This document shows positions 1-53,551 of a DNA stretch of 64,000 nucleotides, piece after piece (position 1 is the first letter of the stretch; every line of letters starts with the position of its first letter). The notes beneath the pieces are model-generated. The model was not told the DNA's origin, made no database searches, and saw nothing but the letters and a program-made list of their open reading frames with translations. The DNA comes from Verrucomicrobiia bacterium. Its GTDB lineage: Bacteria; Verrucomicrobiota; Verrucomicrobiia; Limisphaerales; Palsa-1400. The stretch lies in NCBI GenBank assembly GCA_035551475.1, contig DASZMX010000133.1, forward strand, positions 21,205 to 85,204, read 5' to 3'. The translations under genes and the position numbers were made by a program.

Positions 1-568
1 ACAGAGCGTACGTGGCGACGACGATGAGATAACAAACGCCCAGCGGAAATCGGTCAAAGGCCAGCGCGCCGGCGACCGTGCCGCCGAGAATCGCCACCAG
101 GGTCAGCGCCTCGACCATGCCATTGGCTGTGACGAGGCGATCATTCGGCAGAATTTCCGGCAGGATGCCATATTTTGCCGGTGAATAGACGCACGCGCCA
201 ATGCCGACAACAAAATATCCCCACGCCGTCCAGCCCTGACCCGACGTGATGCTGACGGCGGCGAGAGCGGCGCCAATGAGCTTGATGAGATTGCCCCCCA
301 TCAGCCAATGCGTCTTGGCATAACGATCGTTCAGATAGCCGCTCAATGGCGCCAGCAAAACGTACGGAATGAAAATCAGGCTGGTGAAATAAATATTGGC
401 GACACTTTGCGCTTCGGCCGTGATTGAGCCTTCCCGCAGGCGCGTCATCAACGGCCCAAGAATGGCCATCAAAATGAAGTTATCGCCGAACGCGCTCAGG
501 AACTGGCTGGCGAGCAGCAGCGGATAATTGCGGGCGGCGCGGGGCGCAGATGGTTCGCTGGTGATCAC
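1..568 (-). CDS. MFS transporter, LplT-like (N-terminal 189 codons only; gene runs off the window start)
   Basis: Not in the ORF track because it has no stop in the window. My minus-strand translation from GTG at 568 reads VITSEPSAPRAARNYPLLLASQFLSAFGDNFILMAILGP...GACVYSPAKYGILPEILPNDRLVTANG. It is TM-rich and MFS/lysophospholipid-transporter-like, and the frame is open to position 1. Confidence 0.65.
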   Translation of the reverse strand, partial: MITSEPSAPRAARNYPLLLASQFLSAFGDNFILMAILGPLMTRLREGSITAEAQSVANIYFTSLIFIPYVLLAPLSGYLNDRYAKTHWLMGGNLIKLIGAALAAVSITSGQGWTAWGYFVVGIGACVYSPAKYGILPEILPNDRLVTANGMVEALTLVAILGGTVAGALAFDRFPLGVCYLIVVATYAL

Positions 569-579
569 AGCGCCCGGGG

Positions 580-1023
580 CTAGAGCCGCTTCTCGTCGGC
601 GTCGATATAATCCGTGAAGGTGGTTATATCGTCGCGATGGGACAAGCCAGATTCCGCCTTCCTCATTTTGAGGCGGGCGCGGGCGGAATCCTCGTCGTTG
701 CCGCGATTCAGGACGTACTGGTTGAAGGCCGCTTTTTCGGTTTCGGTTTTCTTGACATTTTGCGTAACCCAATCGGCGACTTGTCCATCGGTGATGGTAT
801 TCTTGACGACGGCGATAAAGTTCTCGGCGGTCAAGCCCGCCGTTTTGAGCCAGTGGCCATCGAAGCCTTTCGTGAAATTCTCCTGGTAATCGGCATGGAG
901 CTTTCCGGCCAGGTGCAGGCGGATTTTGTCCACGAATCGAGGAAGATAAACCCAGCCCGCCATCGTTTCGCGCACACTGCGCGGGTAAATGATTTGTTCC
1001 ATACGCTGTATGTAACACGACAT
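580..1023 (-). CDS. DUF5069 domain protein
   Basis: 147-aa ORF. The N-terminal pattern YPRSVRETMAGWVYLPRFVDKIRLH is one I recognise as DUF5069-like. Alternative start at M8 (1002). Confidence 0.55.
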   Translation of the reverse strand: MSCYIQRMEQIIYPRSVRETMAGWVYLPRFVDKIRLHLAGKLHADYQENFTKGFDGHWLKTAGLTAENFIAVVKNTITDGQVADWVTQNVKKTETEKAAFNQYVLNRGNDEDSARARLKMRKAESGLSHRDDITTFTDYIDADEKRL

Positions 1024-1097
1024 TGGCCAATTTCACGGCAAAAAGAACTCGAGCGGTGGAGAAACTTTGACAAAGTGGCAGGGTTTACGGCGCAGGC

Positions 1098-1766
1098 ATG
1101 CGGACTAGATTTAACAAATGGATCGCCGTCCTGGCGCTATTGGGCCTGATGGTCGGGATTTGGCTGGCGCTGCCTCCGAAAACGCCGGCGACGCTCCCGG
1201 TCTGCATTCTGCCTCAGGGAACGACGGCGCAAGGACCGGCGCCGTTGCTGGATCATTTTTTGTATTCCAGATGGAGGTGGCTGGCGAAAGTCACGAGGAT
1301 GATCGTTGGGCCACGGCGGCAAATCGTTCTCGGCATCCAATTCCTTGAATCGTCCGAAACCATGTCCGCCATCGCGCGCGAGTATGCTTTGGGAACGCCG
1401 CTGGCGGAAAGCAATAACGTGGCCGTGTGGATGCCGGCGGCCAGCGCCTGGCCCGGGCCGCGTGGCGCCTTTAAGCTGGTGAGCGCTCCGCGCATCACGA
1501 CCGCGGATCGCCTGGCCGCGATGGTCAGCGCAGGAACTTTCGCCGCCGGATTTTATGCGCATCTCCTCAGCGACACAGTCGATCTCACGGCTCGCGCACA
1601 AGTCACGGGCGCGGAATCATTCGCGGCGACGGTCCGCGCGCGGCTGTCGTATAATCACATATTAGTCTTGCTGGACACGCTCGATCCCGACCACGCCACG
1701 AACCGCACAGTGATGGTGGTTACTGCGGATGAAATCGATGCGAAGGGAAACAAGGTTGCGCATTGA
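1098..1766 (+). CDS. hypothetical membrane-anchored/exported protein
   Basis: 222-aa ORF with an N-terminal hydrophobic segment (WIAVLALLGLMVGIWLAL). No catalytic motif recognised. It sits directly upstream of the sugar cassette. Confidence 0.5.
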   Translation: MRTRFNKWIAVLALLGLMVGIWLALPPKTPATLPVCILPQGTTAQGPAPLLDHFLYSRWRWLAKVTRMIVGPRRQIVLGIQFLESSETMSAIAREYALGTPLAESNNVAVWMPAASAWPGPRGAFKLVSAPRITTADRLAAMVSAGTFAAGFYAHLLSDTVDLTARAQVTGAESFAATVRARLSYNHILVLLDTLDPDHATNRTVMVVTADEIDAKGNKVAH

Positions 1767-1801
1767 ACTTTGGGGCGGCGCCCGCCATACTGCCGCTTCC
1801 A

Positions 1802-2857
1802 ATGAGCATATTGATTACGGGCAACATGGGATATGTCGGTCCGAGTGTGGTGCGTCAATTGCGGCACAGCCGCCCGGAAGAATTATTGATCGGCTACGAC
1901 ACCGGCTACTTTGCCAACGCCATGACGTCGAGCCTGCTGTTTCCTGAATGCCAGTTGACAGCGCAGCTCTTCGGCGACGTGCGCGGGATTCCCGAAGGCG
2001 TCTTTGACGGCGTGGACGCGGTCGTGCAATTGGCGGCGATCTCCAACGACCCGATGGGCAATGCCTATGAAGCGGTGACGCGGGACATCAATCACGATGC
2101 GAGCATCGACATTGCGCAAAAGGCCAAAGCGGCCGGCGTGAAAAGTTTTGTCTTCGCCTCCAGTTGCAGCGTCTATGGCTTCGCGGAGGACGGCGCGCGC
2201 AATGAGAGTTCCGCGGTCAACCCGCTGACGGCTTATGCGCGCAGCAAAGTGGCGACGGAAACAGATTTGCAGACGCTGGCGGATAAGAATTTCAAGGTGA
2301 CCTGCCTGCGTTTTGCCACGGCCTGCGGCATGAGTCCGCGGTTGCGGCTCGATTTGGTTTTGAACGATTTCGTGGCCAGCGCCATCGCGGCGAAGAAAAT
2401 CACCATCCTGAGCGATGGCACGCCGTGGCGCCCCTTGATCAACACCAAGGACATGGCGCGGGCGATTGATTGGGCCGTGGGACGCAATCCGGCGTCCGGC
2501 GGCGAGTATTTGATTGTCAATGCCGGGAGCGACGAATGGAATTATCAGGTCAAGGATTTGGCCGCTGCCGTCCGCCGGCAGATGCCGCACGTCGAAGTTT
2601 CGATCAACCCGGAGGCGCAACCGGACAAGCGCTCCTATCGCGTGGATTTCTCCCTCTTTCGGCAGCTGGCGCCCAAGCATCAGCCCATTCACAGCCTCGA
2701 CGGCACGGTGCGGGAATTGCGCAGCGGCCTGGAGCAGCTTGGATTTGCCGACGCCAATTTTCGGGAATCGCGGCTGATTCGGCTGAAAATGCTCAACGCC
2801 TTGAAAACATCCGGCAGTTTGACGGACGATCTTTACTGGAAACCCATTACGCCCTAG
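1802..2857 (+). CDS. NAD-dependent epimerase/dehydratase (extended SDR)
   Basis: Rossmann motif ILITGNMGYVG at the N-terminus and catalytic YARSK (YxxxK). Start moved to ATG 1802 (M14 of track ORF 1763..2857). Confidence 0.8.
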   Translation: MSILITGNMGYVGPSVVRQLRHSRPEELLIGYDTGYFANAMTSSLLFPECQLTAQLFGDVRGIPEGVFDGVDAVVQLAAISNDPMGNAYEAVTRDINHDASIDIAQKAKAAGVKSFVFASSCSVYGFAEDGARNESSAVNPLTAYARSKVATETDLQTLADKNFKVTCLRFATACGMSPRLRLDLVLNDFVASAIAAKKITILSDGTPWRPLINTKDMARAIDWAVGRNPASGGEYLIVNAGSDEWNYQVKDLAAAVRRQMPHVEVSINPEAQPDKRSYRVDFSLFRQLAPKHQPIHSLDGTVRELRSGLEQLGFADANFRESRLIRLKMLNALKTSGSLTDDLYWKPITP

Positions 2858-2869
2858 CTTCAGCCCGAT

Positions 2870-4300
2870 ATGCAGAATAATCCCGCGGAACTTAAAGCCG
2901 AAATTCTCCGCCTGACCAAAGAATTTTCGCGCCTCACTCACGGCGCCAACCGCCCGGGTTACGAAACGCCGAATGAAGCGGCGCAACGTCCGAAATTTGT
3001 GGCGGGACAAACGACCGTTCCGTACGCGGGCCGAGTGTTTACGGAGGACGAAGTATCCGCGGCGGTTTCGGCCACGTTGGATTTTTGGCTGACGCTGGGG
3101 AAAGAAGGCGAGGCGCTGGAGGATGGGCTGGCGAAATTCCTGGGCGTCAAGAAGAGCGTGCTGTGCAATTCGGGCTCCTCGGCCAACCTGCTGGCGGTGT
3201 CCGCGTTGTCGAGCCCCAAGCTGGGCAACCGCCGCCTGCAACCCGGCGACGAGATCATCACGGTGGCGGCGGGTTTTCCCACCACGGTCGCGCCCATCGT
3301 GCAAAACGGGTTCGTGCCTGTGTTTCTGGACAACGACCCGAACACGCTCAACGCGCGCGTGGATCAGCTGGAGGAAGGCTTCACTCCAGGCAAAACGAAA
3401 GCCGTGATCTTCGCGCACACGCTGGGGAATCCATTCGACCTGTCGGCGGTGACGGCATTCTGCCGGAAACACGAGTTATGGCTGATCGAGGACAACTGTG
3501 ATGCGCTGGGCTGCACTTACGACGGCAAATTCACCGGAACCTTTGGCGATCTTTCCACCCAATCGTTTTATCCGCCGCACCACATGACGCTCGGTGAAGG
3601 CGGCTCAGTCAACATCGTCCAGAGCTTGAAATTCAAGTCCATCGTGGAGAGTTTCCGCGATTGGGGCCGCGATTGCTGGTGCGCCAGCGGCGTGGACAAC
3701 ACCTGCGGCAAGCGCTTTGACTGGCAGTTGGGCGATCTTCCAAAAGGCTACGATCACAAATTCATCTATTCGCATTTCGGCTACAATTTAAAGCCGCTCG
3801 ATGTGCAAGCCGCCATTGGCCGGGTGCAATTGGAGAAATTGCCGCAATTCATCCAGGCGCGCATTGACAATTGGGAATACATGCGGCGCGGGCTGGCCGA
3901 TCTCGAGGAATTTTTCACTTTCATGCTTCCCACCCACGCGACAGCCTGGACGCCTAAAGGGTTCACCTGGGACGCTTCCGGGCATCGTACGGTCTGCTCC
4001 TGGTTTGGTTTCATGTTGCGCGTGAAGCCCGGCGCGCCCTTCAGCAAATTTGAATTTGCCCGGCATTTGGACCAAAGCAAAATTGGCAACCGCATGCTTT
4101 TCGGGGGAAATCTCGTCCGGCAGCCGGTGATGACGCAATTGAAGAAGGACCGCCCGGAATCGTTCCGCGTTGTCGGCGATCTGGCGGGGGCCGACAAAAT
4201 CATGCAGGAAGCGCTCTTCATCGGCGCTTATCCTGGCCTGACGCACAAGATGCTCGACTACGTCATCGACACGATTCATAAATTCTGCCGTTGTTTCTGA
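2870..4300 (+). CDS. RfbH/DdhC (E1)-like PMP-dependent sugar 3-dehydrase, DegT/DnrJ/EryC1 family
   Basis: 476 aa with VPYAGRVF, CNSGSSANLL and ITVAAGFPTT. In SFYPPHHMTLGEGG a His sits where DegT aminotransferases carry the Schiff-base Lys, as in E1-type 3-dehydrases. Confidence 0.8.
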   Translation: MQNNPAELKAEILRLTKEFSRLTHGANRPGYETPNEAAQRPKFVAGQTTVPYAGRVFTEDEVSAAVSATLDFWLTLGKEGEALEDGLAKFLGVKKSVLCNSGSSANLLAVSALSSPKLGNRRLQPGDEIITVAAGFPTTVAPIVQNGFVPVFLDNDPNTLNARVDQLEEGFTPGKTKAVIFAHTLGNPFDLSAVTAFCRKHELWLIEDNCDALGCTYDGKFTGTFGDLSTQSFYPPHHMTLGEGGSVNIVQSLKFKSIVESFRDWGRDCWCASGVDNTCGKRFDWQLGDLPKGYDHKFIYSHFGYNLKPLDVQAAIGRVQLEKLPQFIQARIDNWEYMRRGLADLEEFFTFMLPTHATAWTPKGFTWDASGHRTVCSWFGFMLRVKPGAPFSKFEFARHLDQSKIGNRMLFGGNLVRQPVMTQLKKDRPESFRVVGDLAGADKIMQEALFIGAYPGLTHKMLDYVIDTIHKFCRCF

Positions 4301-4303
4301 GCA

Positions 4304-5341
4304 ATGCCCGGCGCGCTCCCCATCGCGGACTTGGAGCATGTGCTGGCGCAAACCGCGCCGGAATGGGAGCAAATGCGCGGACGCCGCCTGTTTGTGTCGG
4401 GCGGAACGGGTTTTTTCGGGCGGTGGCTTTTGGAAAGTTTCCTTTTGGCCAACGAACGGCTGGACCTCGGCGCCGAGGCTCTCGTCTTGACGCGAGATGC
4501 GGCGGCATTTCTGCATAAAGCGCCGCATTTGGCGGACCGTTCCGCGCTTCGTTTTCACGAGGGAGATGTCCGCGACTTTTCGTTTCCACCGGGAAAATTC
4601 GACGCGATTATTCACGCGGCGACCGAGGCGAGCGCCAAATTAAATGACGAGAATCCGGGGCTCATGCTGGAAACCATCGTGGAAGGCATGAAAACCATGG
4701 TGAAATTCGCCCGGGCCTGCGGCGCCGGGACAATGCTCTTGACAAGTTCCGGAGCAGTCTATGGCGCGCAGCCGCCGGACCTTGAGCGGACGCCGGAGGA
4801 TTTCATGGGCGCGCCTGATGTGTCGGCGGCGAACGCGGCCTACGGCGAGGGAAAACGCGTCAGCGAACTGCTGGGGCAGATCGAGTCACGGCGAGGGTTG
4901 AAAGTGAAAATCGCGCGCTGCTACGCTTTCGTCGGGCCGGGGTTGCCGCTCGACGCGCATTTCGCGGTGGGCAATTTTATCCGGGACGCGCTGGCGGGGC
5001 GCCCAATTGTCATCCAGGGCGACGGCACGCCGGTGCGCTCTTATCTTTATGCGGCGGACCTGGCGGTCTGGTTGTGGAAGATTCTTTTTGCGGGCGCAAG
5101 CGGGCGACCGTATAACGTGGGGTCAGCCGCTCCGGTGTCGATTGCCGAAACCGCGGCGGCAGTGGCCCGCGCGCTGGGCAGTTCCAGCCGCATCATAGTA
5201 AACCAACAGCCGGTCCCGGGCCGAAAGCCAGCCCGCTACGTGCCGGAGACAACCAGGGCCGAGCGGGAGCTGGGCTTGCGGGCTTGGATCGGGCTGGATG
5301 AAGGCATCAGGCGCACGGCGCAATGGAATAAAAATTCATGA
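4304..5341 (+). CDS. NAD-dependent epimerase/dehydratase or sugar ketoreductase (SDR)
   Basis: 345 aa with Rossmann motif VSGGTGFFGRWL and YGEGK (YxxxK). Starts 3 nt after the previous stop. Confidence 0.75.
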   Translation: MPGALPIADLEHVLAQTAPEWEQMRGRRLFVSGGTGFFGRWLLESFLLANERLDLGAEALVLTRDAAAFLHKAPHLADRSALRFHEGDVRDFSFPPGKFDAIIHAATEASAKLNDENPGLMLETIVEGMKTMVKFARACGAGTMLLTSSGAVYGAQPPDLERTPEDFMGAPDVSAANAAYGEGKRVSELLGQIESRRGLKVKIARCYAFVGPGLPLDAHFAVGNFIRDALAGRPIVIQGDGTPVRSYLYAADLAVWLWKILFAGASGRPYNVGSAAPVSIAETAAAVARALGSSSRIIVNQQPVPGRKPARYVPETTRAERELGLRAWIGLDEGIRRTAQWNKNS

Positions 5342-7140
5342 CACGAGTCGCTGATTATATATTTGACTATTTGGTGAAATCCGGCGGCCAGCATGTTTTC
5401 GTGGTCACGGGCGGCGGCGCCATGTTCCTGAATGACGGTCTGGCGCGTTGCGGCGGCTTGCAATACGTCTGCTGCCACCATGAGCAGGCATGCGCGATGG
5501 CCGCAGAGGCTTATGCGCGCATTTCGGGAAAAATGGGCATCGTCAGCGTGACGACCGGGCCCGGGGGCATCAACGCGCTGAACGGCGTATTTGGCGCCTA
5601 CACCGATTCGATTCCCATGCTGGTCATTTCCGGGCAGGTCAAACGCGAAACCTGTCTGGCCGCGTATGATTTGCCCGCGTTGCGCCAGCTGGGCGACCAG
5701 GAGGTGGACATCATTCGCATGGCGCGCGGCATCACCAAATACGCGGTCCTCGTGCAGGACCCGCTCACGATCCGCTATCATTTGGAGCGCGCGGTTTACA
5801 TGGCCACTCATGGACGCCCCGGCCCTTGCTGGCTGGATATTCCAGTGGACGTGCAATCGGCCATGATCGAGCCGGAACGGCAGAAGGGCTACAATCCCAA
5901 GGACGACGAACCGCGCATCGACGGGTGGGCTCTCGCCAAGACCTGTCAAAATATTATCGCGCATGTGCAGCGGGCGGCGCGCCCCGTCATCATGGCGGGC
6001 ACGGGCGTGCGTTTGGCGGGCGCGGTTGATTTATTTGACACTGTTACCAAAAAGCTGGGCATCCCGGTGACGACCGCGTGGACGGCGGTGGATTTGGTGG
6101 CGACGGATAATCCTTTGTTCTGCGGGCGGCCGTGCAGCATTGGCGATCGGTCGGGCAATTTCACCGTGCAAAATTCCGACGTGCTGCTGGTGTTGGGCTC
6201 GCGGTTAAATATCCGGCAGGTGAGTTACAATTGGAAGGATTTCGCGCGGAATGCGTACGTCGTGCAGGTGGATATTGATCCGGCGGAAATGAAAAAGCCC
6301 ACGATCAAGCCGCATCTGGCGGTGGAATCCGATTTGAAGCCTTTTCTGGAGGAATTCAACCGGCAGATTGACGCCGCAGGGGTCAAAGCCAGCCATCACA
6401 GCGGCTGGCTGGCGTGGTGCCGGGAGCGCGTGGCGCGTTATCCGGTGGTGCAGGAGAAACATCGCACGGGCGCCATGATCAATCCTTATCATTTTCTGGA
6501 CGTGCTCATCCGCAAACTTAAGGCCACGGACACCGTGGCGTGTGGCGATGGGTCGGCTTGCGTGATTCCTTTTCAAGTGGCGTACATCAAAAAAGGGCTG
6601 CGTTTATTCTGCAATTCCGGCGACGCCTCGATGGGTTATGACATCCCGGCGGCGGTGGGCGCGGCGTTTGCCGACCGGTCGCGCCGGGTGATTTGTCTGG
6701 CGGGCGATGGCAGCGGCCACTTCAACATTCAGGAACTGCAAACGATCGTCCAGCATCAGCTTCCAATAAAAATATTCGTCCTCAACAACAACGGCTACCT
6801 TTCGATGCGCATGACGCAAGGCGGCTTTTTCAAGGGGAATTTTATTGGCGAAAGCCCGCGCAGCGGCATCTCCTTCCCCGATTACACCAAAGTGGCGCAA
6901 GCTTACGGCCTGCCCGCCAAGCGAATTGAAAAAGGTGATTTCGCCGCGCAGATTGACGAATTTTTGGAGGCAGAAGGCCCGGGCGTCTGCGAAGTTATTT
7001 TGGATCCCGAGCAAGGGTTCGAGCCGAGGTTAAGCTCGAAGCAATTGCCGGACGGGCGAATTGTGACGGCGCCTTATGAGGATATGGCCCCGTTTCTCAG
7101 CCGCGAGGAATTGGCGGAAAATATGTTTGCCGACAAATGA
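5338..7140 (+). CDS. thiamine diphosphate-dependent enzyme (acetolactate synthase large-subunit-like; YerE-like by context)
   Basis: 600 aa. PYR domain HEQACAMAAEAYARISGKMGIVSVTTGPGGINAL and ThDP-binding motif GDGSGHFNIQELQT...VLNNNGY. ATGA overlap with the upstream stop (5338-5341). Confidence 0.8.
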   Translation: MTRVADYIFDYLVKSGGQHVFVVTGGGAMFLNDGLARCGGLQYVCCHHEQACAMAAEAYARISGKMGIVSVTTGPGGINALNGVFGAYTDSIPMLVISGQVKRETCLAAYDLPALRQLGDQEVDIIRMARGITKYAVLVQDPLTIRYHLERAVYMATHGRPGPCWLDIPVDVQSAMIEPERQKGYNPKDDEPRIDGWALAKTCQNIIAHVQRAARPVIMAGTGVRLAGAVDLFDTVTKKLGIPVTTAWTAVDLVATDNPLFCGRPCSIGDRSGNFTVQNSDVLLVLGSRLNIRQVSYNWKDFARNAYVVQVDIDPAEMKKPTIKPHLAVESDLKPFLEEFNRQIDAAGVKASHHSGWLAWCRERVARYPVVQEKHRTGAMINPYHFLDVLIRKLKATDTVACGDGSACVIPFQVAYIKKGLRLFCNSGDASMGYDIPAAVGAAFADRSRRVICLAGDGSGHFNIQELQTIVQHQLPIKIFVLNNNGYLSMRMTQGGFFKGNFIGESPRSGISFPDYTKVAQAYGLPAKRIEKGDFAAQIDEFLEAEGPGVCEVILDPEQGFEPRLSSKQLPDGRIVTAPYEDMAPFLSREELAENMFADK

Positions 7141-7208
7141 CCGCAGGGAGCGGAAACATTTATTCGTGCCATCCGCGGTGTTCGTGATAAATTTAGATTT
7201 TTCCAGAT

Positions 7209-8297
7209 ATGAATCGTGATGATTTTGAAGATTTGTTCGTTCTCGAAATGACGAACAACCACCTCGGCAGCCTGGAGCGCGGGCTGAAGATCGTGGAGCA
7301 GCATGCCAGAATCGTGCGCTTTAATAATGTCCGCGCGGCGATCAAACTCCAATTTCGCGACATCGACACGTTCATCCATAAGGATTTTCGCGAGCGCTCG
7401 GACATCCGTTACATCAAACGTGTGACGGAAACGAAAATGTCGAAGGCGGATTACGAAACGCTCGTTAACGCCATTCGCAAATACGGCTGCATTCCGATGG
7501 CGACGCCGTTCGACGAGAAATCAGTCGATTGGTGCGTGGAGTTCAACATGCCGCTGATCAAGGTGGCGAGCGCCGACAGCAATGATTGGGTCTTGCTGGA
7601 GAAAATTGCGAAAACGAAAAAGCCGGTGCTGGTGTCGATTGGAGGATTGACGCTGAAAGACATGGACGACATGGTGACGTTTTTCGAAAACCGCAACATC
7701 CCGCTGGCGTTGAACCATTGCGTGGCAGCTTATCCGCACGAGGACGCAGAATGCGAGTTGAGCCAGATCGATTTCCTGCGGAACCGCTACCCGAATCACA
7801 CCATCGGCTATTCGTGCCACGAATACCACGATTGGACGTCGTCGATCATGATCGCATACGCGAAAGGCGCACGAACGTTCGAGCGGCATATCGATATCGA
7901 AGAAGACGGCGCGCCGGTGGCAAAGTATTCCTCGTTGCCCGCGCAAATCGACACCTGGTTCAAGGCCTTCAACAAGGCCAAGGAAATGATCGGCAATTCC
8001 GATGCGCATCGCAAAATTCCGTTGGAAAAAGAAACCGCCTATCTGGACACGTATGTGCGCGGCGTTTATGCGAAAACTGATTTGAAGGAAAATCAGCAAT
8101 TGCTCGAAGAAGACATCTACATGGCAATTCCCCTGCGCAAAGGCCAGATTTCGTCGCGCGAGCTGATGCTCGGGCGTTATGGGCACCGGATGCTGAAGGC
8201 GTGCAAAAAAGATGAGCCGATCACCATCGACATGCTGGACACGCCCTACGCCTACGACGAGCGGTTGAAGCAGGACATCCTGAAACGCGGCATTTAA
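7209..8297 (+). CDS. N-acetylneuraminate synthase (NeuB/SpsE) family protein with C-terminal SAF-like domain
   Basis: 362 aa. NeuB-like pattern LEMTNNHLGSLERGLKIVEQHA...IKLQFR, PFDEKSVDWC, IKVASADSNDWVLLEKIAKTKKPVLVSIGG, GYSCHEY, FERHID. Divergent from the canonical SDH/EKH motifs. Confidence 0.7.
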   Translation: MNRDDFEDLFVLEMTNNHLGSLERGLKIVEQHARIVRFNNVRAAIKLQFRDIDTFIHKDFRERSDIRYIKRVTETKMSKADYETLVNAIRKYGCIPMATPFDEKSVDWCVEFNMPLIKVASADSNDWVLLEKIAKTKKPVLVSIGGLTLKDMDDMVTFFENRNIPLALNHCVAAYPHEDAECELSQIDFLRNRYPNHTIGYSCHEYHDWTSSIMIAYAKGARTFERHIDIEEDGAPVAKYSSLPAQIDTWFKAFNKAKEMIGNSDAHRKIPLEKETAYLDTYVRGVYAKTDLKENQQLLEEDIYMAIPLRKGQISSRELMLGRYGHRMLKACKKDEPITIDMLDTPYAYDERLKQDILKRGI

Positions 8298-8303
8298 TAC
8301 ATC

Positions 8304-9137
8304 GTGAGCGCCACCACCGCCCAGCCACCGGCCGAGAAGAAAAGCTTTCTGCATTTTCTGGATTCCCTGCCCCTCTTCCATGTGCTGGTGCGGACGTTGC
8401 GTCTGCGCCAATTGGCGGGCGCAATGCTGCGGATGAAACCGCGCGTGGGAACGCTCCCGAAAAGCGGCGCGCGCTATCGCTGCCGTTATCTGGAAACCAT
8501 TTTGCTGGCGGACGAGTTGTTCAAGCGCAACGTCTATCTGGAGGCGTTGGCCGCGAAACCGATTTCCACGTTTGTGGACCTTGGCTGCAACGTGGGCCTG
8601 TTTCCGGTCTTATTGACAGAGTTAACCGGGCGCCGCGATTTGCGCGGCTTGTTGATCGACGCCAATCCACAAATGGTCGAGGAGGCGACCTGGCACGCGG
8701 CCACGAACGATTTGAAGCAAGTGATCCCGGTGTTCGGCCTGGCCGGCGCGGCCAATGCGGGACAAAGCGTGGATTTCTATTTGCTGCCGTCGAATTTAGG
8801 GTCGTCGCAATTCCCCGTTTATGAGCCCGGCAAGCCGCAAAAAGGCGCGTGGAAAAAAGTGACGGTGCCGTGCGTCGATGTCGAAACCTTGTGGGTGAAG
8901 CAATTTGGCGATGTCCGCTGCGACATTTTGAAGATGGACATCGAGGGCTCGGAAAAAACCTTTTTGGAGACAGACAAGAAATTTCTGCAACGGGTGGACG
9001 CCATCATTCTGGAATGGCACAAGTGGATCGTCACGCGCGAGCAGGTGGAAGCCATGCTCACCGCGCAGGGTTTCAAGCTGGTGCAAGTGCTGGAGGAATT
9101 GGGGCAAACCGGCATCGCCTGGTACCGCCGGTCATGA
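8304..9137 (+). CDS. FkbM-family SAM-dependent methyltransferase
   Basis: 277 aa with FVDLGCNVGLF (SAM-binding glycine motif) and KMDIEGSE, both typical of the FkbM family. GTG start 6 nt after the NeuB-like stop; the exact start is uncertain. Confidence 0.7.
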   Translation: MSATTAQPPAEKKSFLHFLDSLPLFHVLVRTLRLRQLAGAMLRMKPRVGTLPKSGARYRCRYLETILLADELFKRNVYLEALAAKPISTFVDLGCNVGLFPVLLTELTGRRDLRGLLIDANPQMVEEATWHAATNDLKQVIPVFGLAGAANAGQSVDFYLLPSNLGSSQFPVYEPGKPQKGAWKKVTVPCVDVETLWVKQFGDVRCDILKMDIEGSEKTFLETDKKFLQRVDAIILEWHKWIVTREQVEAMLTAQGFKLVQVLEELGQTGIAWYRRS

Positions 9138-10409
9138 TTTCTTTTCGAGATTAGGCAGGAACACTGTCAATACGCCGATCAACGGCAAAAAGGAGCAGAC
9201 CAGAAAGACCACCTTAATGCTGGTGGCGTCGGCCAGCCACCCCAGCACCGCCGAGCCCATCCCGCCCATGCCGAAAGCCAGCCCGAAGAACAAGCCGGCA
9301 ATCATCCCAACTTTTCCCGGAAGCAATTCCTGCGCGTACACCAGGATGGCGGAGAACGCCGACGCCAGGACAAAACCCACCACCACGGAAAGGGCCGCGG
9401 TCCAGTAGAGCGAGACGTGCGGGAGCAGCAGCGTGAAGGGAGCCGCGCCCAAAATCGAGACCCAGATGACATATTTGCGGCCAATGCGGTCGCCCACCGG
9501 TCCGCCCACCAACGTGCCGGCGGCCACGGCAAACAGGAAAACGAAAAGATACATTTGCGCGTGGCGAATCGAGAGATGGAATTTGCTGATCAAGTAAAAC
9601 GTGTAATAACTCGACATGCTGGCCAGGTAAAAAAACTTGGAGAACATCAGCGCGATCAAGACCGCCAATGAAATGGTGACTTGCCGGCGGGTTAGCGCAT
9701 CCGCCGCGTGGCCGCCCTTCCCCTGCCCGCGGCGGTGCAAGCGAAACAAGTTCCGTTGATACCAGCCGCCCACTTTGGTCAGGGTGATTATGCCGCCAAA
9801 GGCGACGATGGAGAACCAAGCCACCCGCGATTGTTCACCGCTGGGCGCGATCACCAGCGCGGCCAGGAGCGGCCCCAGCGAACTGCCGAGATTGCCGCCC
9901 AGTTGGAAAAGAGATTGCGCGAATCCCCGGCGCCGCCCTGCGGCCATGTATGCGACGCGCGACGCCTCTGGGTGAAAAACGGAAGATCCGACGCCAATGA
10001 GCGCCACCGACATGAGAACAAACGCATAACGATTGGCGAGCGACAATAAAATCAATCCGACCAGCGTGCAGCACATGCCCGCCGCCAGCGAATAGGGATG
10101 CGAGCGCCGGTCCGTGTAAAAGCCGACCACCGGCTGCAAAATCGACGCTGTCAACTGGAAGGTCAAGGTGATGAGGCCGATCTGCGCAAATGAGAGATGG
10201 AAGTTTTCTTTGACCAGCGGATAGATGGACGGGATCAGCGATTGAATGATATCGTTGAGCAGGTGGGAAAAACTGATGGCGAGAAGAACACTTAAAACTG
10301 TGTTCTCCGCCGAAATCTCGCTGGTTTTGCCGGCCTTCTCCGCCCATTCCGCTCGCACAGGCCCAGAATAGCGGCTTTGGGCGACGGTGGCAAATGCGGG
10401 AGATTGCAA
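9132..10409 (-). CDS. MFS transporter, Fsr (fosmidomycin resistance)-like
   Basis: 425 aa and polytopic. ISFSHLLNDIIQSLIPSIYPLVKENFHLSFAQIGLITLTFQLTASILQPVVGFYTDRR matches the Fsr-type MFS N-terminal signature. Its convergent 3' end overlaps the FkbM gene by 6 nt. Confidence 0.8.
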   Translation of the reverse strand: MQSPAFATVAQSRYSGPVRAEWAEKAGKTSEISAENTVLSVLLAISFSHLLNDIIQSLIPSIYPLVKENFHLSFAQIGLITLTFQLTASILQPVVGFYTDRRSHPYSLAAGMCCTLVGLILLSLANRYAFVLMSVALIGVGSSVFHPEASRVAYMAAGRRRGFAQSLFQLGGNLGSSLGPLLAALVIAPSGEQSRVAWFSIVAFGGIITLTKVGGWYQRNLFRLHRRGQGKGGHAADALTRRQVTISLAVLIALMFSKFFYLASMSSYYTFYLISKFHLSIRHAQMYLFVFLFAVAAGTLVGGPVGDRIGRKYVIWVSILGAAPFTLLLPHVSLYWTAALSVVVGFVLASAFSAILVYAQELLPGKVGMIAGLFFGLAFGMGGMGSAVLGWLADATSIKVVFLVCSFLPLIGVLTVFLPNLEKKS

Positions 10410-10454
10410 CCGCTATTGACACGCGGGGCGCTTTTCGCTTTTGTCCTGCGAGCA

Positions 10455-11780
10455 GTGAAGAAGTTTTTCAAATCGATCGAAGGCTCCATCGTCGCGCCGC
10501 AGGGATTTCTGACGACGGGGGTTTTTTGCGACATCAAACGCCTCGGCACAGGCAAGGGCTCCAATCGCGGAGCCAAACGCGACCTCGCGCTAATCGTCTC
10601 GGAGGCGCCGGCCGCCGTGGCGGGAACATTCACCACCAATCAGGTGTGCGCCGCGCCGGTGAAATTATGCGCCGCGCGGTTAAAAAGCGGCGTTGGACGC
10701 GCCATCGTGGTGAACTCGGGAAATGCCAATGCCTGCACCGGCGCCCGCGGGAAAAAAGACGCCGAGGCCATGGCGGACCAAACCGCGAAGATTTTGGGGC
10801 TTCCGTCGCGCGAGATATTTGTCGCCTCCACCGGGCGGATCGGCGTGCTGCTGCCCATGCCCAACGTGCAGCGCGGGATCGCGGCGGCCGCCCAGGCGCT
10901 TGGGGCATCGAACGATCACGCCGCGGCAGCGGTCGAGGCCATCATGACGAGCGATACACGGCCCAAGCAAGCGGCCGTGGAATTTACCTTGGGCGGGAAG
11001 ACTGTGCGCATCGGCGGGATGTGCAAAGGCGCGGGCATGATCCAGCCGGGGATGAGCGCCACCGGCGCGCGGCCGGCGCTGCGTTCGCTGCATGCGACCA
11101 TGCTTTGCTTCCTGACGACGGACGCCGCGATCGACGCGCGCACGCTGCAGGTCGCCGTCAACGAGGCGGTCGCACAAAGTTTCAATCGCATTACCGTGGA
11201 CGGCGACATGAGCACCAACGACACGGTTTTAATTCTGGCCAACGGCCGGGCCGGCTGCGCGCCGGTCCGAAAAGGCACAAAGGAAATGGAAGTTTTCCAG
11301 GCGGCGCTGAACCAGGTGACGTTGGAATTGGCGCGCAAAATTGTGCTGGACGGCGAAGGCGTATCGCGCTTCGTGACGGTGCGGCTGACAGGAGCCAGAA
11401 CCCCTGCCGACGCCGAGTCCGCGGCCCGTTCCGTGGCGAACAGCGCCCTGGTGAAAACGAGTTGGCACGGCGGCGATCCGAATTGGGGCCGAATTCTTTG
11501 CGCGCTGGGCTATTCGAGCGCCCATATCGCCGAGGAAAAAATTGACGTGGGTTACAGCCTTCCGGGCGCGCGGCAGGTTTTGTATTCGTTGAAAGGCGGA
11601 CGCCCGACCAACGCGACTTTTGCCGCGTTGTGCAAAGTGGCGGGCGAGAAGGAATTTGACCTGCACATCAATTTGCACATCGGCAAATCAAGCGCGCTGA
11701 TGTATGCGGCGGATTTGACGGAGGAATATGTGGATTTTAACAAAGGCGACGTGACTGATCCGGCGTCGCTGGGCGGCTAA
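10455..11780 (+). CDS. argJ: bifunctional glutamate N-acetyltransferase / amino-acid acetyltransferase
   Basis: IVAPQGFLTTGV N-terminus, TNQVCAAPV, and the autoprocessing site context HATMLCFLTTDA. Start moved to the in-frame GTG at 10455 (V27 of the track ORF); the 10377 start would overlap the divergent MFS gene. Confidence 0.85.
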   Translation: MKKFFKSIEGSIVAPQGFLTTGVFCDIKRLGTGKGSNRGAKRDLALIVSEAPAAVAGTFTTNQVCAAPVKLCAARLKSGVGRAIVVNSGNANACTGARGKKDAEAMADQTAKILGLPSREIFVASTGRIGVLLPMPNVQRGIAAAAQALGASNDHAAAAVEAIMTSDTRPKQAAVEFTLGGKTVRIGGMCKGAGMIQPGMSATGARPALRSLHATMLCFLTTDAAIDARTLQVAVNEAVAQSFNRITVDGDMSTNDTVLILANGRAGCAPVRKGTKEMEVFQAALNQVTLELARKIVLDGEGVSRFVTVRLTGARTPADAESAARSVANSALVKTSWHGGDPNWGRILCALGYSSAHIAEEKIDVGYSLPGARQVLYSLKGGRPTNATFAALCKVAGEKEFDLHINLHIGKSSALMYAADLTEEYVDFNKGDVTDPASLGG

Positions 11781-17314: not shown

Positions 17315-19474
17315 TTACGTGCAGTAGCTGCTGATGGCCTGGCGCCAGGAAGGGGCCAAGGTTGTTTCGGGGCGCAGCCAAATCTGCCGGTGCATCCAGG
17401 CCATGGAATCGGCGTCCGAAAGAATGATCATTTTTTCATCGGGGCGAAGTTCGTCAAACCCGCGCACGATGAGCTTTTCCGCGATCCATTTGACGTCAGG
17501 CCCGCTGGCGCCGATTTTCGCCAGGGCCTGGGCGGATTCCGGATTGAGCTGGGCTTCGCGCAACATCGAGACGTGGATGGCGTTCAGATATGGATCAACG
17601 ACGCTTTGAATGAGATGCGGAATCTGGGGCCCGGCCGCCTCGTCTTGTTCGGCCAGAGCCAGACGGGTTTGGAGCGCGACCAATTCCGGCGGAGGCGAGG
17701 TTTCCTCCGGAGTCAGGAAGAGGCCGAAATCCTTGGCAATATCGCCCCAGCGGGCGCGGCTGGTGAAAACGCTCAGCGGAATCGCCAGCGCCATGCCCAG
17801 GAACAAGGGCAGAAACCAAAAAAATGTGTTGGGCATAAACCACAAGATGATTCCACCCCACCCCAAACCAATGGCGGTTTGCCACCAATGCTGGCGCAAG
17901 GCATAGGCCCAGGAATTGCCTTCCGCGGTGCGGGTTTGCGTTCCCCAATCAATCGTTTTGCCGCGCAGAATGGTGAAGACGAAACGCGTGTGCCAGAGCA
18001 TTTGCAGCGGCGCGTGCAGCGTGGAAAATGCTGTTTCCGCAATGGTGCCCACAAGAATATGCGCCATGCCGCCAAAAGCCTGCCGACGCTGGTGGTCGAA
18101 GAAGGCGTCAATCACCGCGAGAACGCGCGGCACCAGCAGGACGCCCATGCAAAGGAGGAACACGAGAAAAGCGTGGGCGGCGGCATCGAGATCCAGGTCC
18201 GCCATCCAGCTATGCACGGTGATTTGCGAGAGGCCGATGGCGCTGGTCAAAAGCCACATCCAATAAAACGTGACGAGAAAGGCGAGCCAAAGCGGACTGG
18301 CGAGATACCCGAAAATTCCCTGCACCAAATGGATGCGGCTGATGCCATGCAAACCGCGCGCCCCGAGCACCATCATGTGCTGGAGATTGCCCTGGCACCA
18401 CCGCCGGTCGCGCTTGGCATTCTCAATCATGTCAGGAGGCCCCTCCTCGTAGCTGCCATCCAATTGCCACGCCAGCCACACCTGGGAATTTTCGCGCAGC
18501 AACAAAGCAGCTTCCACAAAATCGTGCGAGAGAATGAAGCCGCCGAAGGGTTTGCGCCCGGGCAATTGCGGCAGCGCGCAAAATTTCATGAACGTCTCGG
18601 TGCGAATAATGGCGTTGTGCCCCCAATAATTCGCAAAACCCTCGGACCAATGGTCGAGCCCGCGAATAAAAATCGGCGTGTAAAACCGATTGGAAAATTG
18701 CTGCATGCGCCCGAACAGCGAGCGCGCGTTGAAAATGCCGGGCACCGTTTGGATGAGGCCGCTGGCGGGATTGGCCTCCATCAAATTCACAAGATTCACG
18801 ATGGTGCGCCCATGCATGACGCTATCGGCGTCGAACGTGATGAAGTAACGGTAGCGCTGGCCCCAAACGCTCAAAAATTCCCGGATATTGCCGGACTTTT
18901 TGCCCTCGTTGTCCACCCGGCGCCGGTAATAAATGCGGCTCATGCCGCCCGTTTTCTGGATGAGTTTTTGCCAGGCCTTTTCCTCCTCGATCCATTTTTC
19001 CGGATCGGTGGAATCGCTCAGGATAAAAAAATCAAAGCGCTCCACCTGCCCCGCGCTTTTCAGGGAATTATAGGTGATGCGCAGGCCCTCGTACACGCGC
19101 GTAATATCTTCGTTGTAGATGGGAAAAAGAATGGCGGTGTTCGCGGCGGGATCGATGGGATCATCCGCTTGAATGGAAGCCGGCCGATGCACCAAATCAA
19201 TGCGGCGCAAAACGAAACCATAAAGCGCGTGCATGAAGCCAATCGCCGCGAAGAAAAAAAGCAGGAAAAATAAAACCAGCAGAATGGTGCGCGAGCCCGA
19301 CCACCCTGTGCGCCACAAAAGATCAGCGAAAAACACCGACACAAAACACGTCAAGAACATCGCCAGGGAATACAAGCTGAACAGACGCAGCCCGCGCACC
19401 ACCGGGGAAGCGGGCGTCAGGATCAGCCGTGAGGCGGCTTCGGCGGCAGGCATGGTCTCCGGCTCCGAAATCAT
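17315..19474 (-). CDS. opgH: glucans biosynthesis glucosyltransferase H (GT2, OpgH/MdoH)
   Basis: ILFPIYNEDITRV, GKKSGNIREF, ITFDADSVM and RDRRWCQGNLQH (QxxRW-type), flanked by multiple TM segments. Start moved to ATG 19474 (MISEPET), 2 nt after the upstream stop. Confidence 0.85.
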   Translation of the reverse strand: MISEPETMPAAEAASRLILTPASPVVRGLRLFSLYSLAMFLTCFVSVFFADLLWRTGWSGSRTILLVLFFLLFFFAAIGFMHALYGFVLRRIDLVHRPASIQADDPIDPAANTAILFPIYNEDITRVYEGLRITYNSLKSAGQVERFDFFILSDSTDPEKWIEEEKAWQKLIQKTGGMSRIYYRRRVDNEGKKSGNIREFLSVWGQRYRYFITFDADSVMHGRTIVNLVNLMEANPASGLIQTVPGIFNARSLFGRMQQFSNRFYTPIFIRGLDHWSEGFANYWGHNAIIRTETFMKFCALPQLPGRKPFGGFILSHDFVEAALLLRENSQVWLAWQLDGSYEEGPPDMIENAKRDRRWCQGNLQHMMVLGARGLHGISRIHLVQGIFGYLASPLWLAFLVTFYWMWLLTSAIGLSQITVHSWMADLDLDAAAHAFLVFLLCMGVLLVPRVLAVIDAFFDHQRRQAFGGMAHILVGTIAETAFSTLHAPLQMLWHTRFVFTILRGKTIDWGTQTRTAEGNSWAYALRQHWWQTAIGLGWGGIILWFMPNTFFWFLPLFLGMALAIPLSVFTSRARWGDIAKDFGLFLTPEETSPPPELVALQTRLALAEQDEAAGPQIPHLIQSVVDPYLNAIHVSMLREAQLNPESAQALAKIGASGPDVKWIAEKLIVRGFDELRPDEKMIILSDADSMAWMHRQIWLRPETTLAPSWRQAISSYCT

Positions 19475-19476
19475 AA

Positions 19477-20046
19477 TCAATGGGTGCGAATGAAAATGAA
19501 AATGAGGATCAGGATAAAGAGCGTCCAAGTGGAGAAAACCGACACTTGCAAAAAGCGGGTCTGAGTCAACTCCACGATGGCGCCCATCGGGCCCAGATCA
19601 AGTGGGCGCGGATCCATGCGCGCGAGCTGAAATTCCGGCCCGGCGCGCAGGTAGGCTTCGCGCATGGCGGTGACGAATTCCTCGGGCCACGGCCCTGGCG
19701 CCAGAAACTGGTCCTGCCAGCGCCCGGGCATGTCAGCGAGGATCAGCGCCAGCCGGCCGCGCGTCGGCAGCATATTCTTGGTTTCGGGCGTGGCGCCGAG
19801 AATCTCCTCAAACCACTTGATGATGAGCCGGTCCATTTCCTCCACGGCCAGCTCGGTCGGGGTCAGGTTGGGCTCGGCCGCGGCGCGTTCCATGGCGCGA
19901 TCAAGCACATGCAAGACGAGCTTGCCGAGAACGACTTTATTGCGCAATTGCAACGCGTAGAAGTAGCGCTCCACCTTTGCATAGGCGGCGTTCCATTCTC
20001 CCAGCGGACGGCCCCCCGCTCCTGCGCTCACGGGCAAGACGCTCAT
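19477..20046 (-). CDS. hypothetical tail-anchored protein encoded between opgG and opgH
   Basis: 189 aa from ATG 20046 (ATGA overlap with the opgG stop at 20043-20046). Soluble helical-looking body with a single C-terminal TM (VFSTWTLFILILIFIFI). No family recognised. Confidence 0.6.
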   Translation of the reverse strand: MSVLPVSAGAGGRPLGEWNAAYAKVERYFYALQLRNKVVLGKLVLHVLDRAMERAAAEPNLTPTELAVEEMDRLIIKWFEEILGATPETKNMLPTRGRLALILADMPGRWQDQFLAPGPWPEEFVTAMREAYLRAGPEFQLARMDPRPLDLGPMGAIVELTQTRFLQVSVFSTWTLFILILIFIFIRTH

Positions 20047-21617: not shown

Positions 21618-21740
21618 TCGTTGCAATCGTCGGCTGAGTATAAGACAAACCTGGGGTAAAATGCGAGCCTCGTTTGCTTGCCTTTGGATCGGACGCCGTT
21701 TCGACTGTGCAAACCAAGGCAGCGTGCTATTGTCCCGCGC

Positions 21741-43698: not shown

Positions 43699-43832
43699 GC
43701 GCGTATTAAAGAGTTCCCGCGCCCAAGTTCAAAGTTCAAAGCGCTGGCAGGAAATCACCTACCGGCGCGGCTGAGAACCCCGGAGAATGTTTCCGGTTGG
43801 CGCCGCGAAGCCCGTGGATGAGGGTTGAAAAA

Positions 43833-53487: not shown

Positions 53488-53502
53488 GATCATGATACAA
53501 TC

Positions 53503-53538
53503 GCGGGCGCCGGCCCAAACCGGCGCCCGCGCTTTTCG
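53503..53538 (+). terminator. intrinsic terminator-like hairpin between the giant LamG gene and the pseudopilin gene
   Basis: Perfect 11-bp GC stem GCGGGCGCCGG / CCGGCGCCCGC (53503-53513 and 53520-53530), loop CCCAAA, followed by GCTTTTCG. It lies 16 nt after the stop at 53487. Confidence 0.65.
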
Positions 53539-53551
53539 TAGGAGTCATAAA

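Follow-up and report, generated by a model that had tools for sequence, protein, structure and literature searches.

A verrucomicrobial gene cassette linking a NeuB-family synthase to an RfbH-type dehydrase and a YerE-like carboligase: possible late steps of acyl-branched 3,6-dideoxyhexose biosynthesis

We analyzed a stretch of 64,000 nucleotides (64 kb; the window) from contig DASZMX010000133.1 of a Verrucomicrobiia bacterium, in which six intact co-directional genes at positions 1802–9137 form a cassette with a probable role in the synthesis of branched sugars. All six lie on the plus strand and encode, in order, a short-chain dehydrogenase/reductase (SDR1), an E1/RfbH protein, a second short-chain dehydrogenase/reductase (SDR2), a thiamine diphosphate (ThDP) enzyme, a NeuB-like protein and an FkbM-family protein. 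The successive junctions are 12 nt, 3 nt, an ATGA overlap between the SDR2 and ThDP genes, 68 nt and 6 nt. These coordinates and gaps exactly reproduced those of an earlier note on this DNA, and the six gene assignments made there all held in our family scans; the starts of all six genes also agree with the JGI gene calls on the source contig. The ATGA overlap suggests translational coupling of SDR2 and the ThDP enzyme. A scan of positions 500–10600 returned one promoter-like site, where 3.8 were expected, and 19 terminator-like sites against an expectation of 14.8; not one of them lay at a gene junction, and neither kind of site was found in the 68-nt intergenic spacer (7141–7208), whose 3′ end is AT-rich. 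Judged from this arrangement, the six genes most likely constitute one operon-like cassette. Related loci from other genomes are labeled here by L-numbers (L016, L083, L086 and so on).

E1 (2870–4300; 476 aa) is the predicted pyridoxamine 5′-phosphate/[2Fe-2S] enzyme of the cassette, a cytidine diphosphate (CDP)-4-keto-6-deoxyglucose 3-dehydrase orthologous to RfbH, DdhC and AscC. The protein belongs to the DegT family (1.4e-72), passes the NCBIfam RfbH equivalog NF011936 with 639.7 bits (cutoff 423) and matches the Yersinia E1 (PDB 3bcx) at 5.6e-137. A histidine had been proposed to replace the lysine of aminotransferases, and this was confirmed by alignment of His237 with His220 of Yersinia E1, a column identified by the H220K mutant in PDB 3bb8. 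The [2Fe-2S] motif C-X57-C-X1-C-X7-C is also kept, with Cys210, Cys269, Cys271 and Cys279 corresponding to C193, C251, C253 and C261 of the Yersinia enzyme. Because E1 exceeds the NF011936 cutoff with the histidine and all four cysteines intact, it has the sequence of a bona fide RfbH equivalog, that is, a true RfbH/DdhC-type dehydrase and not an aminotransferase. It shares 49% identity with its counterpart in the locus encoding JanthE (see below), and its dN/dS (the ratio of nonsynonymous to synonymous substitution rates) against L086 was 0.043. Neither a dedicated E3 (AscD) partner nor upstream RfbF and RfbG genes occur within the 64-kb window, and an E3-like FNR protein is present in just 4 of 48 related loci.

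The ThDP enzyme (5338–7140; 600 aa), a predicted YerE/JanthE-like carboligase, carries the three TPP domains TPP_enzyme_N, M and C, together with the motifs GDG...NN (GDGSGHFN...NNNGY) and HHEQA, the latter containing the catalytic Glu according to the alignment. It fell below every acetolactate synthase equivalog cutoff (for example, 319 bits against the 538 required by TIGR00118), and its best solved relative was JanthE (PDB 8rph; 410 bits, about 36% identity). Scores against plant acetohydroxyacid synthase (AHAS) and PpYerE (PDB 5ahk) were 235 and 228 bits. There is no ilvN partner in the window, and ilvC (40507–41532) lies 33 kb away on the minus strand. Since the enzyme is below all AHAS cutoffs, lacks ilvN and has JanthE as its best solved relative, we predict that it is not IlvB. 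JanthE, from Janthinobacterium sp. HH01, is a YerE-like lyase that couples α-keto acids to ketones (PMC12188165, PMC12247030). In the window, in many related loci and in the JanthE locus, the ThDP gene stands beside E1 and an SDR reductase (E1, SDR2, ThDP). The yersiniose-type (YerE/YerF) logic that the earlier note had seen in this gene set was thus upheld by a true RfbH and a ThDP enzyme nearest to JanthE; neither of the placements it had set against that logic, E1 among ordinary aminotransferases or the ThDP enzyme among IlvB and other non-sugar enzymes, was what we found.

NeuB-family enzymes form 3-deoxy-2-ulosonic acids by condensing phosphoenolpyruvate (PEP) with aldehydes. The NeuB-like protein (7209–8297; 362 aa) is a predicted PEP-dependent aldehyde-condensing synthase of this family. 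It matches Pfam NeuB PF03102 with 135 bits (cutoff 22) and is far below the equivalogs for NeuB (TIGR03569, 116 bits against 400) and PseI (TIGR03586, 115 against 340); its best solved relative is 3g8r (5e-63, 216 bits). Residues E13, K46, Q48, K118, S121, S143, H204, E225 and H227 align with E25, K53, Q55, K129, S132, S154, H215, E234 and H236 of Neisseria meningitidis NeuB (NmNeuB), and the metal-binding His pair of that enzyme (here His204 and His227) is kept, as are its catalytic and PEP residues; Asn184 of NmNeuB corresponds to Ala173. The dN/dS against L086 was 0.027. As 3-deoxy-2-ulosonic acids are γ-hydroxy-α-keto acids (4-hydroxy-2-oxo acids), we propose that the NeuB-like enzyme supplies an acid of that kind.

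The database names of these two proteins are "acetolactate synthase large subunit" and "N-acetylneuraminate synthase" or "SpsE". Taken literally, the names would assign the ThDP enzyme to branched-chain amino acid synthesis as an acetolactate synthase and the NeuB-like enzyme to the synthesis of sialic, pseudaminic or legionaminic acid. General family membership agrees with this interpretation, which the scores given above make extremely unlikely, as do the missing ilvN and the distance and opposite strand of ilvC. In addition, we found no NeuA, NeuC, PseB/C/F/G/H or LegB/C, and no CMP-sugar synthetase of the NeuA or KdsB kind, whether in the window or in the recurrent families annotated for the related loci.

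SDR1 (1802–2857; 351 aa) and SDR2 (4304–5341; 345 aa) are members of the extended short-chain dehydrogenase/epimerase family (Pfam Epimerase, 1e-33 and 1e-31, respectively). In most related loci, an SDR2 homologue adjoins the ThDP gene. SDR351, the second SDR of the JanthE locus, shares 30% identity with SDR2 (E 3e-36), and the SDR351/SDR2 family was found in 52 NeuB-type loci. Because SDR2 overlaps the ThDP gene and its family is common to the JanthE locus, we propose that SDR2 is a side-chain or C4-region ketoreductase with a YerF-like role. The part played by SDR1 is uncertain, with C4-oxidoreductase, epimerase or reductase activity on a nucleotide sugar as candidates. Its best solved relative, 6vo6, gave a weak match of only 70 bits, and it is kept in L086 with 74% amino acid identity over the 104 aa available, a fragment for which dS (the synonymous rate) was not estimable. 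At L016:1823–5221, the order is RfbF, an SDR1-like gene (39% identical to SDR1) and E1, with no canonical CDP-glucose 4,6-dehydratase within the locus. Because this homologue lies between RfbF and E1 where a canonical RfbG is missing, SDR1-type proteins may act on, supply or modify the keto sugar before E1, which we treat as a lead only. We rejected SDR1 and SDR2 themselves as the missing 4,6-dehydratase. The active-site motifs are SSCSVYG...YxxxK in SDR1 and SSGAVYG in SDR2 as opposed to T[ST]DKCYEN in the CDP-glucose 4,6-dehydratase RfbG, and TIGR02622 gave no match to SDR1 and 18 bits with SDR2.

The last gene (8304–9137; 277 aa; GTG start) encodes an FkbM-family S-adenosylmethionine (SAM) methyltransferase, which scored 57.2 bits with TIGR01444 (cutoff 37.7) and 44.9 with Pfam Methyltransf_21 PF05050 (cutoff 22.7); a search of the PDB found no solved relative by sequence. 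Its dN/dS against L086 was 0.068. The adjacency of the NeuB-like and FkbM genes and their 6-nt junction are kept in L086, L087 and L090, in which FkbM is 87–88% identical. FkbM homologues at 52–70% identity lie in unrelated contexts and never next to a NeuB-like gene, and for this reason FkbM appears from its sequence distribution to be a recent, lineage-specific recruit. The idea that FkbM is a general partner of the NeuB-like enzyme was dropped, as only the 87–88% identical orthologues adjoin a NeuB-like gene. We propose a tailoring methylation for FkbM, on either the NeuB-derived branch or the sugar. In L090, an 8-kb contig, the NeuB-like (91%) and FkbM (87%) genes directly follow a phosphotransferase system (PTS) EIIB gene and a fused PTS EI/HPr/EIIA gene (L090:60–4868).

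The NeuB-like protein has thousands of relatives, the best 120 of which are 72–100% identical to it. A species scan with one genome per species yielded 573 NeuB-like relatives; in the best 80 of these 573, the identity is 64–86% across phyla. The labels of these 80 are Verrucomicrobiota, Planctomycetota, Acidobacteriota, Chloroflexota, Nitrospirota, Gemmatimonadota, Myxococcota, Bacteroidota, Spirochaetota, Omnitrophota, Bacillota and Beta- and Gammaproteobacteria, with the reservation that the phylum labels of metagenome-assembled genomes may be imperfect. The carriers include the isolate Polynucleobacter sp. JS-Safj-400b-B2, and complete genomes are represented by Verrucomicrobia bacterium IMCC26134 and two Arenicellales (nBUS_45/48). 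A search of a plasmid collection with the NeuB-like protein gave no match. Over the 80 loci, identities to the window proteins were mostly 46–75% for the ThDP enzyme (31–35% in four loci with a divergent type), mostly 45–80% for E1 (32–33% in two loci) and mostly 40–64% for the SDR2 type. The NeuB-like protein is the most conserved member of the cluster, which suggests a fixed substrate and product and also horizontal spread.

The open reading frames (ORFs) of these 80 loci were clustered and the recurrent families annotated; gene families were then counted in the 48 loci whose NeuB-like gene is flanked on either side by 6 kb or more. The recurring order is RfbF, CDP-glucose 4,6-dehydratase, E1, SDR2-type SDR, ThDP enzyme, FabG-type SDR, AroB-related enzyme, NeuB-like, a family 2 glycosyltransferase (GT2) of the ArnC/GtrB/PgfS kind and GtrA. 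GT-C/GT87 proteins, haloacid dehalogenase (HAD) phosphatases, Methyltransf_23- or FkbM-type methyltransferases, E3-like FNR proteins and NUDIX proteins occur occasionally. The ThDP gene lies within 6 kb of the NeuB-like gene in 46 of the 48 loci, from many phyla, and because of this the NeuB-like/ThDP pair is the invariant core of these clusters. E1 and RfbF were each found in 31 loci, the AroB-like and FabG genes together in 32 and GT2 in 29; the methyltransferases are of the Methyltransf_23 type in 10 loci and of the FkbM type in 6. The cassette does not stand alone, as its NeuB-like/ThDP pair is found in hundreds of species. No BphI or BphJ homologue was present in the window or in any of about 90 NeuB-type loci; the NeuB-like module and the BphI/BphJ aldolase module are mutually exclusive.

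The gene order in the window is a trimmed one. In relatives with 83–88% NeuB identity (L083–L085, L006, L007 and L091), FabG and AroB-like genes of about 1.8 kb in total stand between the ThDP and NeuB-like genes (for example, L083:8190–9928 and L091:7649–9551), at the position of the 68-nt spacer of the window. The 88% relative L083 also has a true RfbF (339 bits; cutoff 300) and a CDP-glucose 4,6-dehydratase (477; cutoff 278) directly before E1. The window lineage has SDR1 before E1 where these relatives have RfbF and RfbG, the 68-nt spacer at the FabG/AroB-like position, and the FkbM gene after NeuB-like. A tblastn search with FabG and AroB-like representatives gave no match in the window, with no remnants in the spacer, and the spacers of the window and L086 have no obvious similarity. 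We considered the possibility that the cassette is a decaying, product-less remnant, because, measured against its 83–88% relatives, it lacks the two genes that open the pathway, FabG with AroB-like, and every transferase. However, all six ORFs are intact with their catalytic residues kept, the junctions are still tight, and an independent sister lineage, L086/L087 (identities of 91% for NeuB-like and 88% for FkbM), shares this order together with a convergent gene of the major facilitator superfamily (MFS). Pairwise dN/dS values against L086 were 0.03–0.11 for the five genes with estimable dS, at saturated synonymous sites. Because the sister lineage keeps the order under purifying selection, the trimmed order does not have the sequence features of decay, the genes appear real and functional, and a remnant is very unlikely. 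The locus is an incomplete, lineage-specific version of fuller clusters.

The low GC content noticed in the NeuB-like gene proved real: it is 36.7% at 7201–7260 and 52.7% over the gene as a whole, compared with 59.1% for the window. As a sign of foreign origin it failed. GC at third codon positions (GC3) is 72.2% (0.722), compared with 71–75% in the other five cassette genes and 66–76% in the wider set measured, and the dip sits in codon positions 1 (52%) and 2 (34%). Because GC3 equals that of the neighbors and the dip is confined to positions 1 and 2, we rejected a foreign origin of the gene, and its low GC reflects the amino acid composition of a very conserved protein.

We then consider the genes that the cassette would need and the window does not contain. 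A tblastn search with representatives from the related loci, combined with Pfam scans of the other large ORFs, found no RfbF, CDP-glucose 4,6-dehydratase, E3-like reductase, ArnC-like GT2, GtrA, HAD, AroB-like, NeuA-like or Wzx/Wzy protein in the 64-kb window. The earlier note was therefore right that the nucleotidyltransferase, the 4,6-dehydratase, E3, a NeuA-like enzyme and Wzx/Wzy are absent. Its description of a cassette with no glycosyltransferase or flippase is correct for the cassette and fails as a general trait, as the relatives carry RfbF, RfbG, ArnC-like GT2, GtrA and GT-C genes.

The AroB-related enzyme of the relatives gave rise to a second interpretation. This enzyme keeps the zinc and phosphate motifs of dehydroquinate synthase and matches TIGR04425 ("putative sugar phosphate phospholyase, cyclizing") with 410 bits (cutoff 400). 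In some loci, a HAD phosphatase belonging to either of two sequence clusters adjoins the NeuB-like gene in place of FabG and AroB-like (L022, L027, L034, L037, L044, L050, L052, L062, L064 and L074); the two alternatives never occur together in a fully flanked locus. A comparable arrangement is that of KdsA/KdsC, in which a phosphatase removes the phosphate. By analogy, the pairing of NeuB-like with AroB-like suggests a NeuB-like product with a terminal phosphate. Such a product could instead be the acceptor: AroB-like would cyclize it, the ThDP enzyme would attach a small acyl group to the ring, for instance one derived from pyruvate, and so form a branched cyclitol or acid, and E1 would feed a separate sugar. 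The intact motifs of AroB-like, the ability of YerE-like enzymes to accept cyclic ketones (PMC12247030) and the existence of ThDP, FabG, AroB-like and NeuB-like as a self-contained block in many loci fit this scheme. However, the window and its sister lineage keep E1, SDR2, ThDP and NeuB-like under purifying selection without AroB-like and FabG, so that no cluster-encoded cyclase is available in the cassette to make a cyclic ketone; 12 of the 48 loci have, like the window, neither AroB-like nor HAD; and the scaffold common to the JanthE/erwiniose-type locus points to a CDP-keto sugar as the acceptor. We consider this second interpretation quite unlikely.

A third interpretation is that the cassette consists of two independent adjacent modules, in which SDR1, E1 and SDR2 would make an ordinary 3,6-dideoxyhexose of the abequose, paratose or ascarylose type and the ThDP, NeuB-like and FkbM enzymes a separate product derived from an ulosonic acid. 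E1 and an SDR reductase are enough for simple 3,6-dideoxyhexoses, and separate modules would account for the 17 of 48 loci that have the ThDP and NeuB-like genes, with or without FabG and AroB-like, and no E1 within 10 kb, as well as for L090, which has NeuB-like and FkbM with neither ThDP nor E1 nearby. Against it stand the ATGA overlap of SDR2 and ThDP and the recurrence of the order E1, SDR2, ThDP across phyla. Furthermore, the nearest characterized ThDP relative is of the ketone-accepting, sugar-branching type with E1 directly upstream in its own locus, and the NeuA/KdsB-like activating enzyme that a separate ulosonic acid product would call for was not found. Two modules are thus unlikely, if less so than a product-less remnant.

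On balance, and with modest confidence, we favor the reading that the cassette carries the late steps of biosynthesis of an acyl-branched (long-branched) 3,6-dideoxyhexose of the yersiniose, erwiniose or caryophyllose kind, in which the NeuB-like enzyme replaces an aldolase. The earlier note knew of no described pathway with both chemistries and a methyltransferase in one cassette, and we also found no paper on the combination. In the searchable literature, no paper links NeuB/SpsE with YerE-like, RfbH or AroB-like enzymes; an in silico survey by Krug et al. 2024 (Angew e202403535), reportedly of more than 200 YerE-like clusters, falls outside that scope. A published scheme nevertheless accommodates both chemistries. 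In it, a YerE-like enzyme ligates a γ-hydroxy-α-keto acid (C4 to C8) onto CDP-4-keto-3,6-dideoxyglucose to give long-branched 3,6-dideoxyhexoses; the donor acid is the product of a pyruvate aldolase encoded in the cluster, the ligation is followed by a reduction, and the Rhodopseudomonas palustris cluster adds a SAM methyltransferase (PMC9306805). NeuB chemistry had been set in contrast to branched-sugar chemistry, a contrast that falls away because ulosonic acids are the donor class of this scheme (PMC9306805). One pathway can therefore explain both chemistries.

The gene identities, catalytic residues, conserved order under purifying selection, linkage and exclusivity with the aldolase module described above were observed; from them we infer what the substrates are, in which order the steps proceed, what SDR1, SDR2 and FkbM do and what becomes of the product, as follows. 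E1 would remove the 3-hydroxyl of a CDP-4-keto-6-deoxyhexose supplied by genes outside the window, and SDR1 may take part in forming or modifying this keto sugar. The NeuB-like enzyme would form a 3-deoxy-2-ulosonic acid from PEP and an aldehyde. The ThDP enzyme would decarboxylate this acid and add the resulting acyl-anion equivalent to the C4 ketone of the CDP-sugar, yielding a tertiary alcohol and a branch. SDR2 would then reduce the new side-chain ketone, as YerF does, and FkbM would methylate a hydroxyl. The NeuB-like enzyme would thus stand in for the pyruvate aldolase of other clusters (ErwI, MMAR_2331 and MygI, and the BphI-like protein of the JanthE locus).

Several findings weigh against this pathway. 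The loci without E1 and the L090 pair show that parts of the cassette can occur apart. Without RfbF, RfbG, E3 and a cassette glycosyltransferase, the pathway cannot be closed from the window. PpYerE is no nearer to the ThDP enzyme than AHAS is, JanthE itself is only about 36% identical to it, and the physiological substrates of JanthE are not known (PMC12188165). An AroB-like enzyme with intact dehydroquinate synthase motifs stands next to NeuB-like in two-thirds of the relatives (32/48), and true cyclization by it would destroy the α-keto acid and argue for a different order of steps. Finally, no biochemical link of any NeuB-family enzyme to a ThDP lyase is known.

A broader proposal, which we offer tentatively as possible and no better than that, is that the pairing of NeuB-like and ThDP genes is the signature of a pathway, present in many phyla, that makes long-chain C4-branched sugars; in this pathway a shikimate-like mini-route would supply the branch, and the window variant would be O-methylated. 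The NeuB-like enzyme would make from PEP a 3-deoxy-heptulosonate phosphate like that of 3-deoxy-D-arabino-heptulosonate 7-phosphate (DAHP) synthase; AroB-like would only eliminate the phosphate, and FabG would reduce the 6-ketone to give 3,7-dideoxyheptulosonate. Ligation and reduction would then produce the CHOH-CH2-CHOH-CHOH-CHOH-CH3 chain of caryophyllose (structure as given in PMC9092360). Alternatively, AroB-like might cyclize after ligation, leading to a carbocyclic branch. The sugar could be delivered via the ArnC-like GT2, GtrA and a GT-C enzyme. The cassette in the window, having FkbM and lacking AroB-like and FabG, would make a new version of the branch that is O-methylated and not deoxygenated.

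GT-C enzymes of the PMT_2 kind use polyprenyl-phosphate sugars, and the GT2, GtrA and GT87 genes of the related loci imply such sugars as the delivery route. The window has one GT-C-type protein (35531–37273, plus strand), with a PMT_2 domain and C-terminal tetratricopeptide (TPR) repeats, 26 kb from the cassette; it has no detectable homology to the GT87 or GT-C proteins of the related loci.

The genes flanking the cassette are unrelated to it. Upstream are an MFS gene, a DUF5069 gene and a gene for a 222-aa protein without a family match (hyp222; 1098–1766). We rejected hyp222 as a member of the cassette, as it has no homologue in the 80 genome loci; its sole homologue, at 38% identity, is about 8 kb from NeuB-like in L083–L085, and it is unrelated to the 228-aa gene that follows FkbM in L090. 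Downstream are a convergent MFS gene (9132–10358, minus strand), which overlaps the FkbM gene (end at 9137) by 6 nt at the stop codons, and then argJ, argB, argD and argF. The FkbM/MFS arrangement is kept in L086 and L087 and not in L090. Genes farther away are housekeeping genes (opgGH, dxr, argS, sdhABC, addB, nadA, ilvC, ubiD and accA). At 17315–22376 (minus strand), an opgH/opgG-like pair stands beside an ABC-2 transporter and a TPR protein; the opgH-like gene encodes a GT2 membrane glucosyltransferase of 737 aa, and the opgG-like protein (777 aa) has an N-terminal region of about 290 aa before its MdoG domain. The mechanically called dxr ORF at 24703–26391 (plus strand) is 562 aa long with Dxr domains beginning at residue 188; its true start is probably internal, the alternative being an unexplained extension at the N terminus. 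Positions 43797–44960 (plus strand) encode a bacterial type IB topoisomerase with a Topoisom_I core and a Top1B_N_bact domain. Four very large ORFs of 1573, 909, 824 and 964 aa occupy 48766–62638 (plus strand), and among them, at 53423–54496 (plus strand), is a prepilin-type N-methylation/DUF1559 protein.

Caryophyllose, erwiniose and gastriose are rare surface antigens, long-branched higher-carbon sugars. The biosynthesis of long-branched sugars was rationalized only in 2022, and only with branches supplied by aldolases (PMC9306805). If the favored pathway is true, a NeuB-type supplier that uses PEP would open a second route to long branches, one that is thermodynamically irreversible, and would widen the known roles of the sialic acid synthase family. 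The logic of such a pathway is already known; what would be new, as far as we checked, are the PEP-dependent supplier, the spread over many phyla and the sugar products. From the breadth of the module, one would expect abundant bacteria of soil and fresh water to have envelope sugars not yet discovered, and a NeuB-like enzyme together with a YerE-like lyase would be a new enzyme pair for chiral tertiary alcohols in biocatalysis. Cultured carriers exist, which makes the idea testable.

The cassette resembles several known systems in part. The nearest analogy for the NeuB-like/AroB-like (TIGR04425) neighbors in the related loci is the pair of DAHP synthase and 3-dehydroquinate synthase, from which they differ in that the condensing enzyme is of the NeuB family and the genes are embedded in a CDP-sugar/ThDP cluster, and AroB-like and FabG are absent from the window. 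With the NeuB, PseI and LegI synthases and with 3g8r, an uncharacterized Chromobacterium violaceum protein with no function assigned, the NeuB-like protein shares the TIM-barrel NeuB fold, the conserved residues and the predicted reaction type. Unlike these synthases, it scores below the equivalogs, has no NeuA/NeuC-type partners and is linked to a ThDP lyase. In yersiniose A biosynthesis (YerE/YerF of Yersinia pseudotuberculosis), as in the proposed pathway, E1-made CDP-4-keto-3,6-dideoxyglucose is the presumed acceptor, and ThDP-dependent branching at C4 is followed by reduction; in contrast, YerE uses pyruvate and needs no donor-making enzyme, and the PpYerE score to the window enzyme does not exceed that of AHAS.

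The closest counterparts are the acyl-branched clusters for erwiniose (ErwE/F/I/J of Pectobacterium atrosepticum), caryophyllose (MMAR_2331-2333 of Mycobacterium marinum), gastriose (MyGE/MygF/MygI) and "ropiose" of R. palustris (PMC9306805). Like these, the cassette as predicted here has an E1 CDP-sugar route, a YerE-like ThDP enzyme with an NAD(P)H-dependent SDR reductase, a donor-acid enzyme and a SAM methyltransferase, the last being optional and found in R. palustris. It differs in its predicted donor supplier, which is a NeuB-family synthase and not a pyruvate aldolase of the HpcH/citrate-lyase-like or BphI-like kind, and in the absence from the window of RfbF, RfbG, E3 and a glycosyltransferase, so that neither the supply of CDP-4-keto-3,6-dideoxyglucose nor the transfer of the sugar is encoded there. 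The JanthE locus (L088; 8rph) has the erwiniose-type layout described in PMC9306805, with RfbF, RfbG, E1, JanthE, an SDR, a BphJ-like acylating aldehyde dehydrogenase, a BphI-like 4-hydroxy-2-oxovalerate aldolase, SDR351 and GT2. The GDG of the window enzyme corresponds to a CDG motif in JanthE, and the JanthE locus has a GT2 gene and no NeuB-like gene. The JanthE locus and the NeuB-like clusters nevertheless share one scaffold, in which the BphI/BphJ pair stands where the window has the NeuB-like gene.

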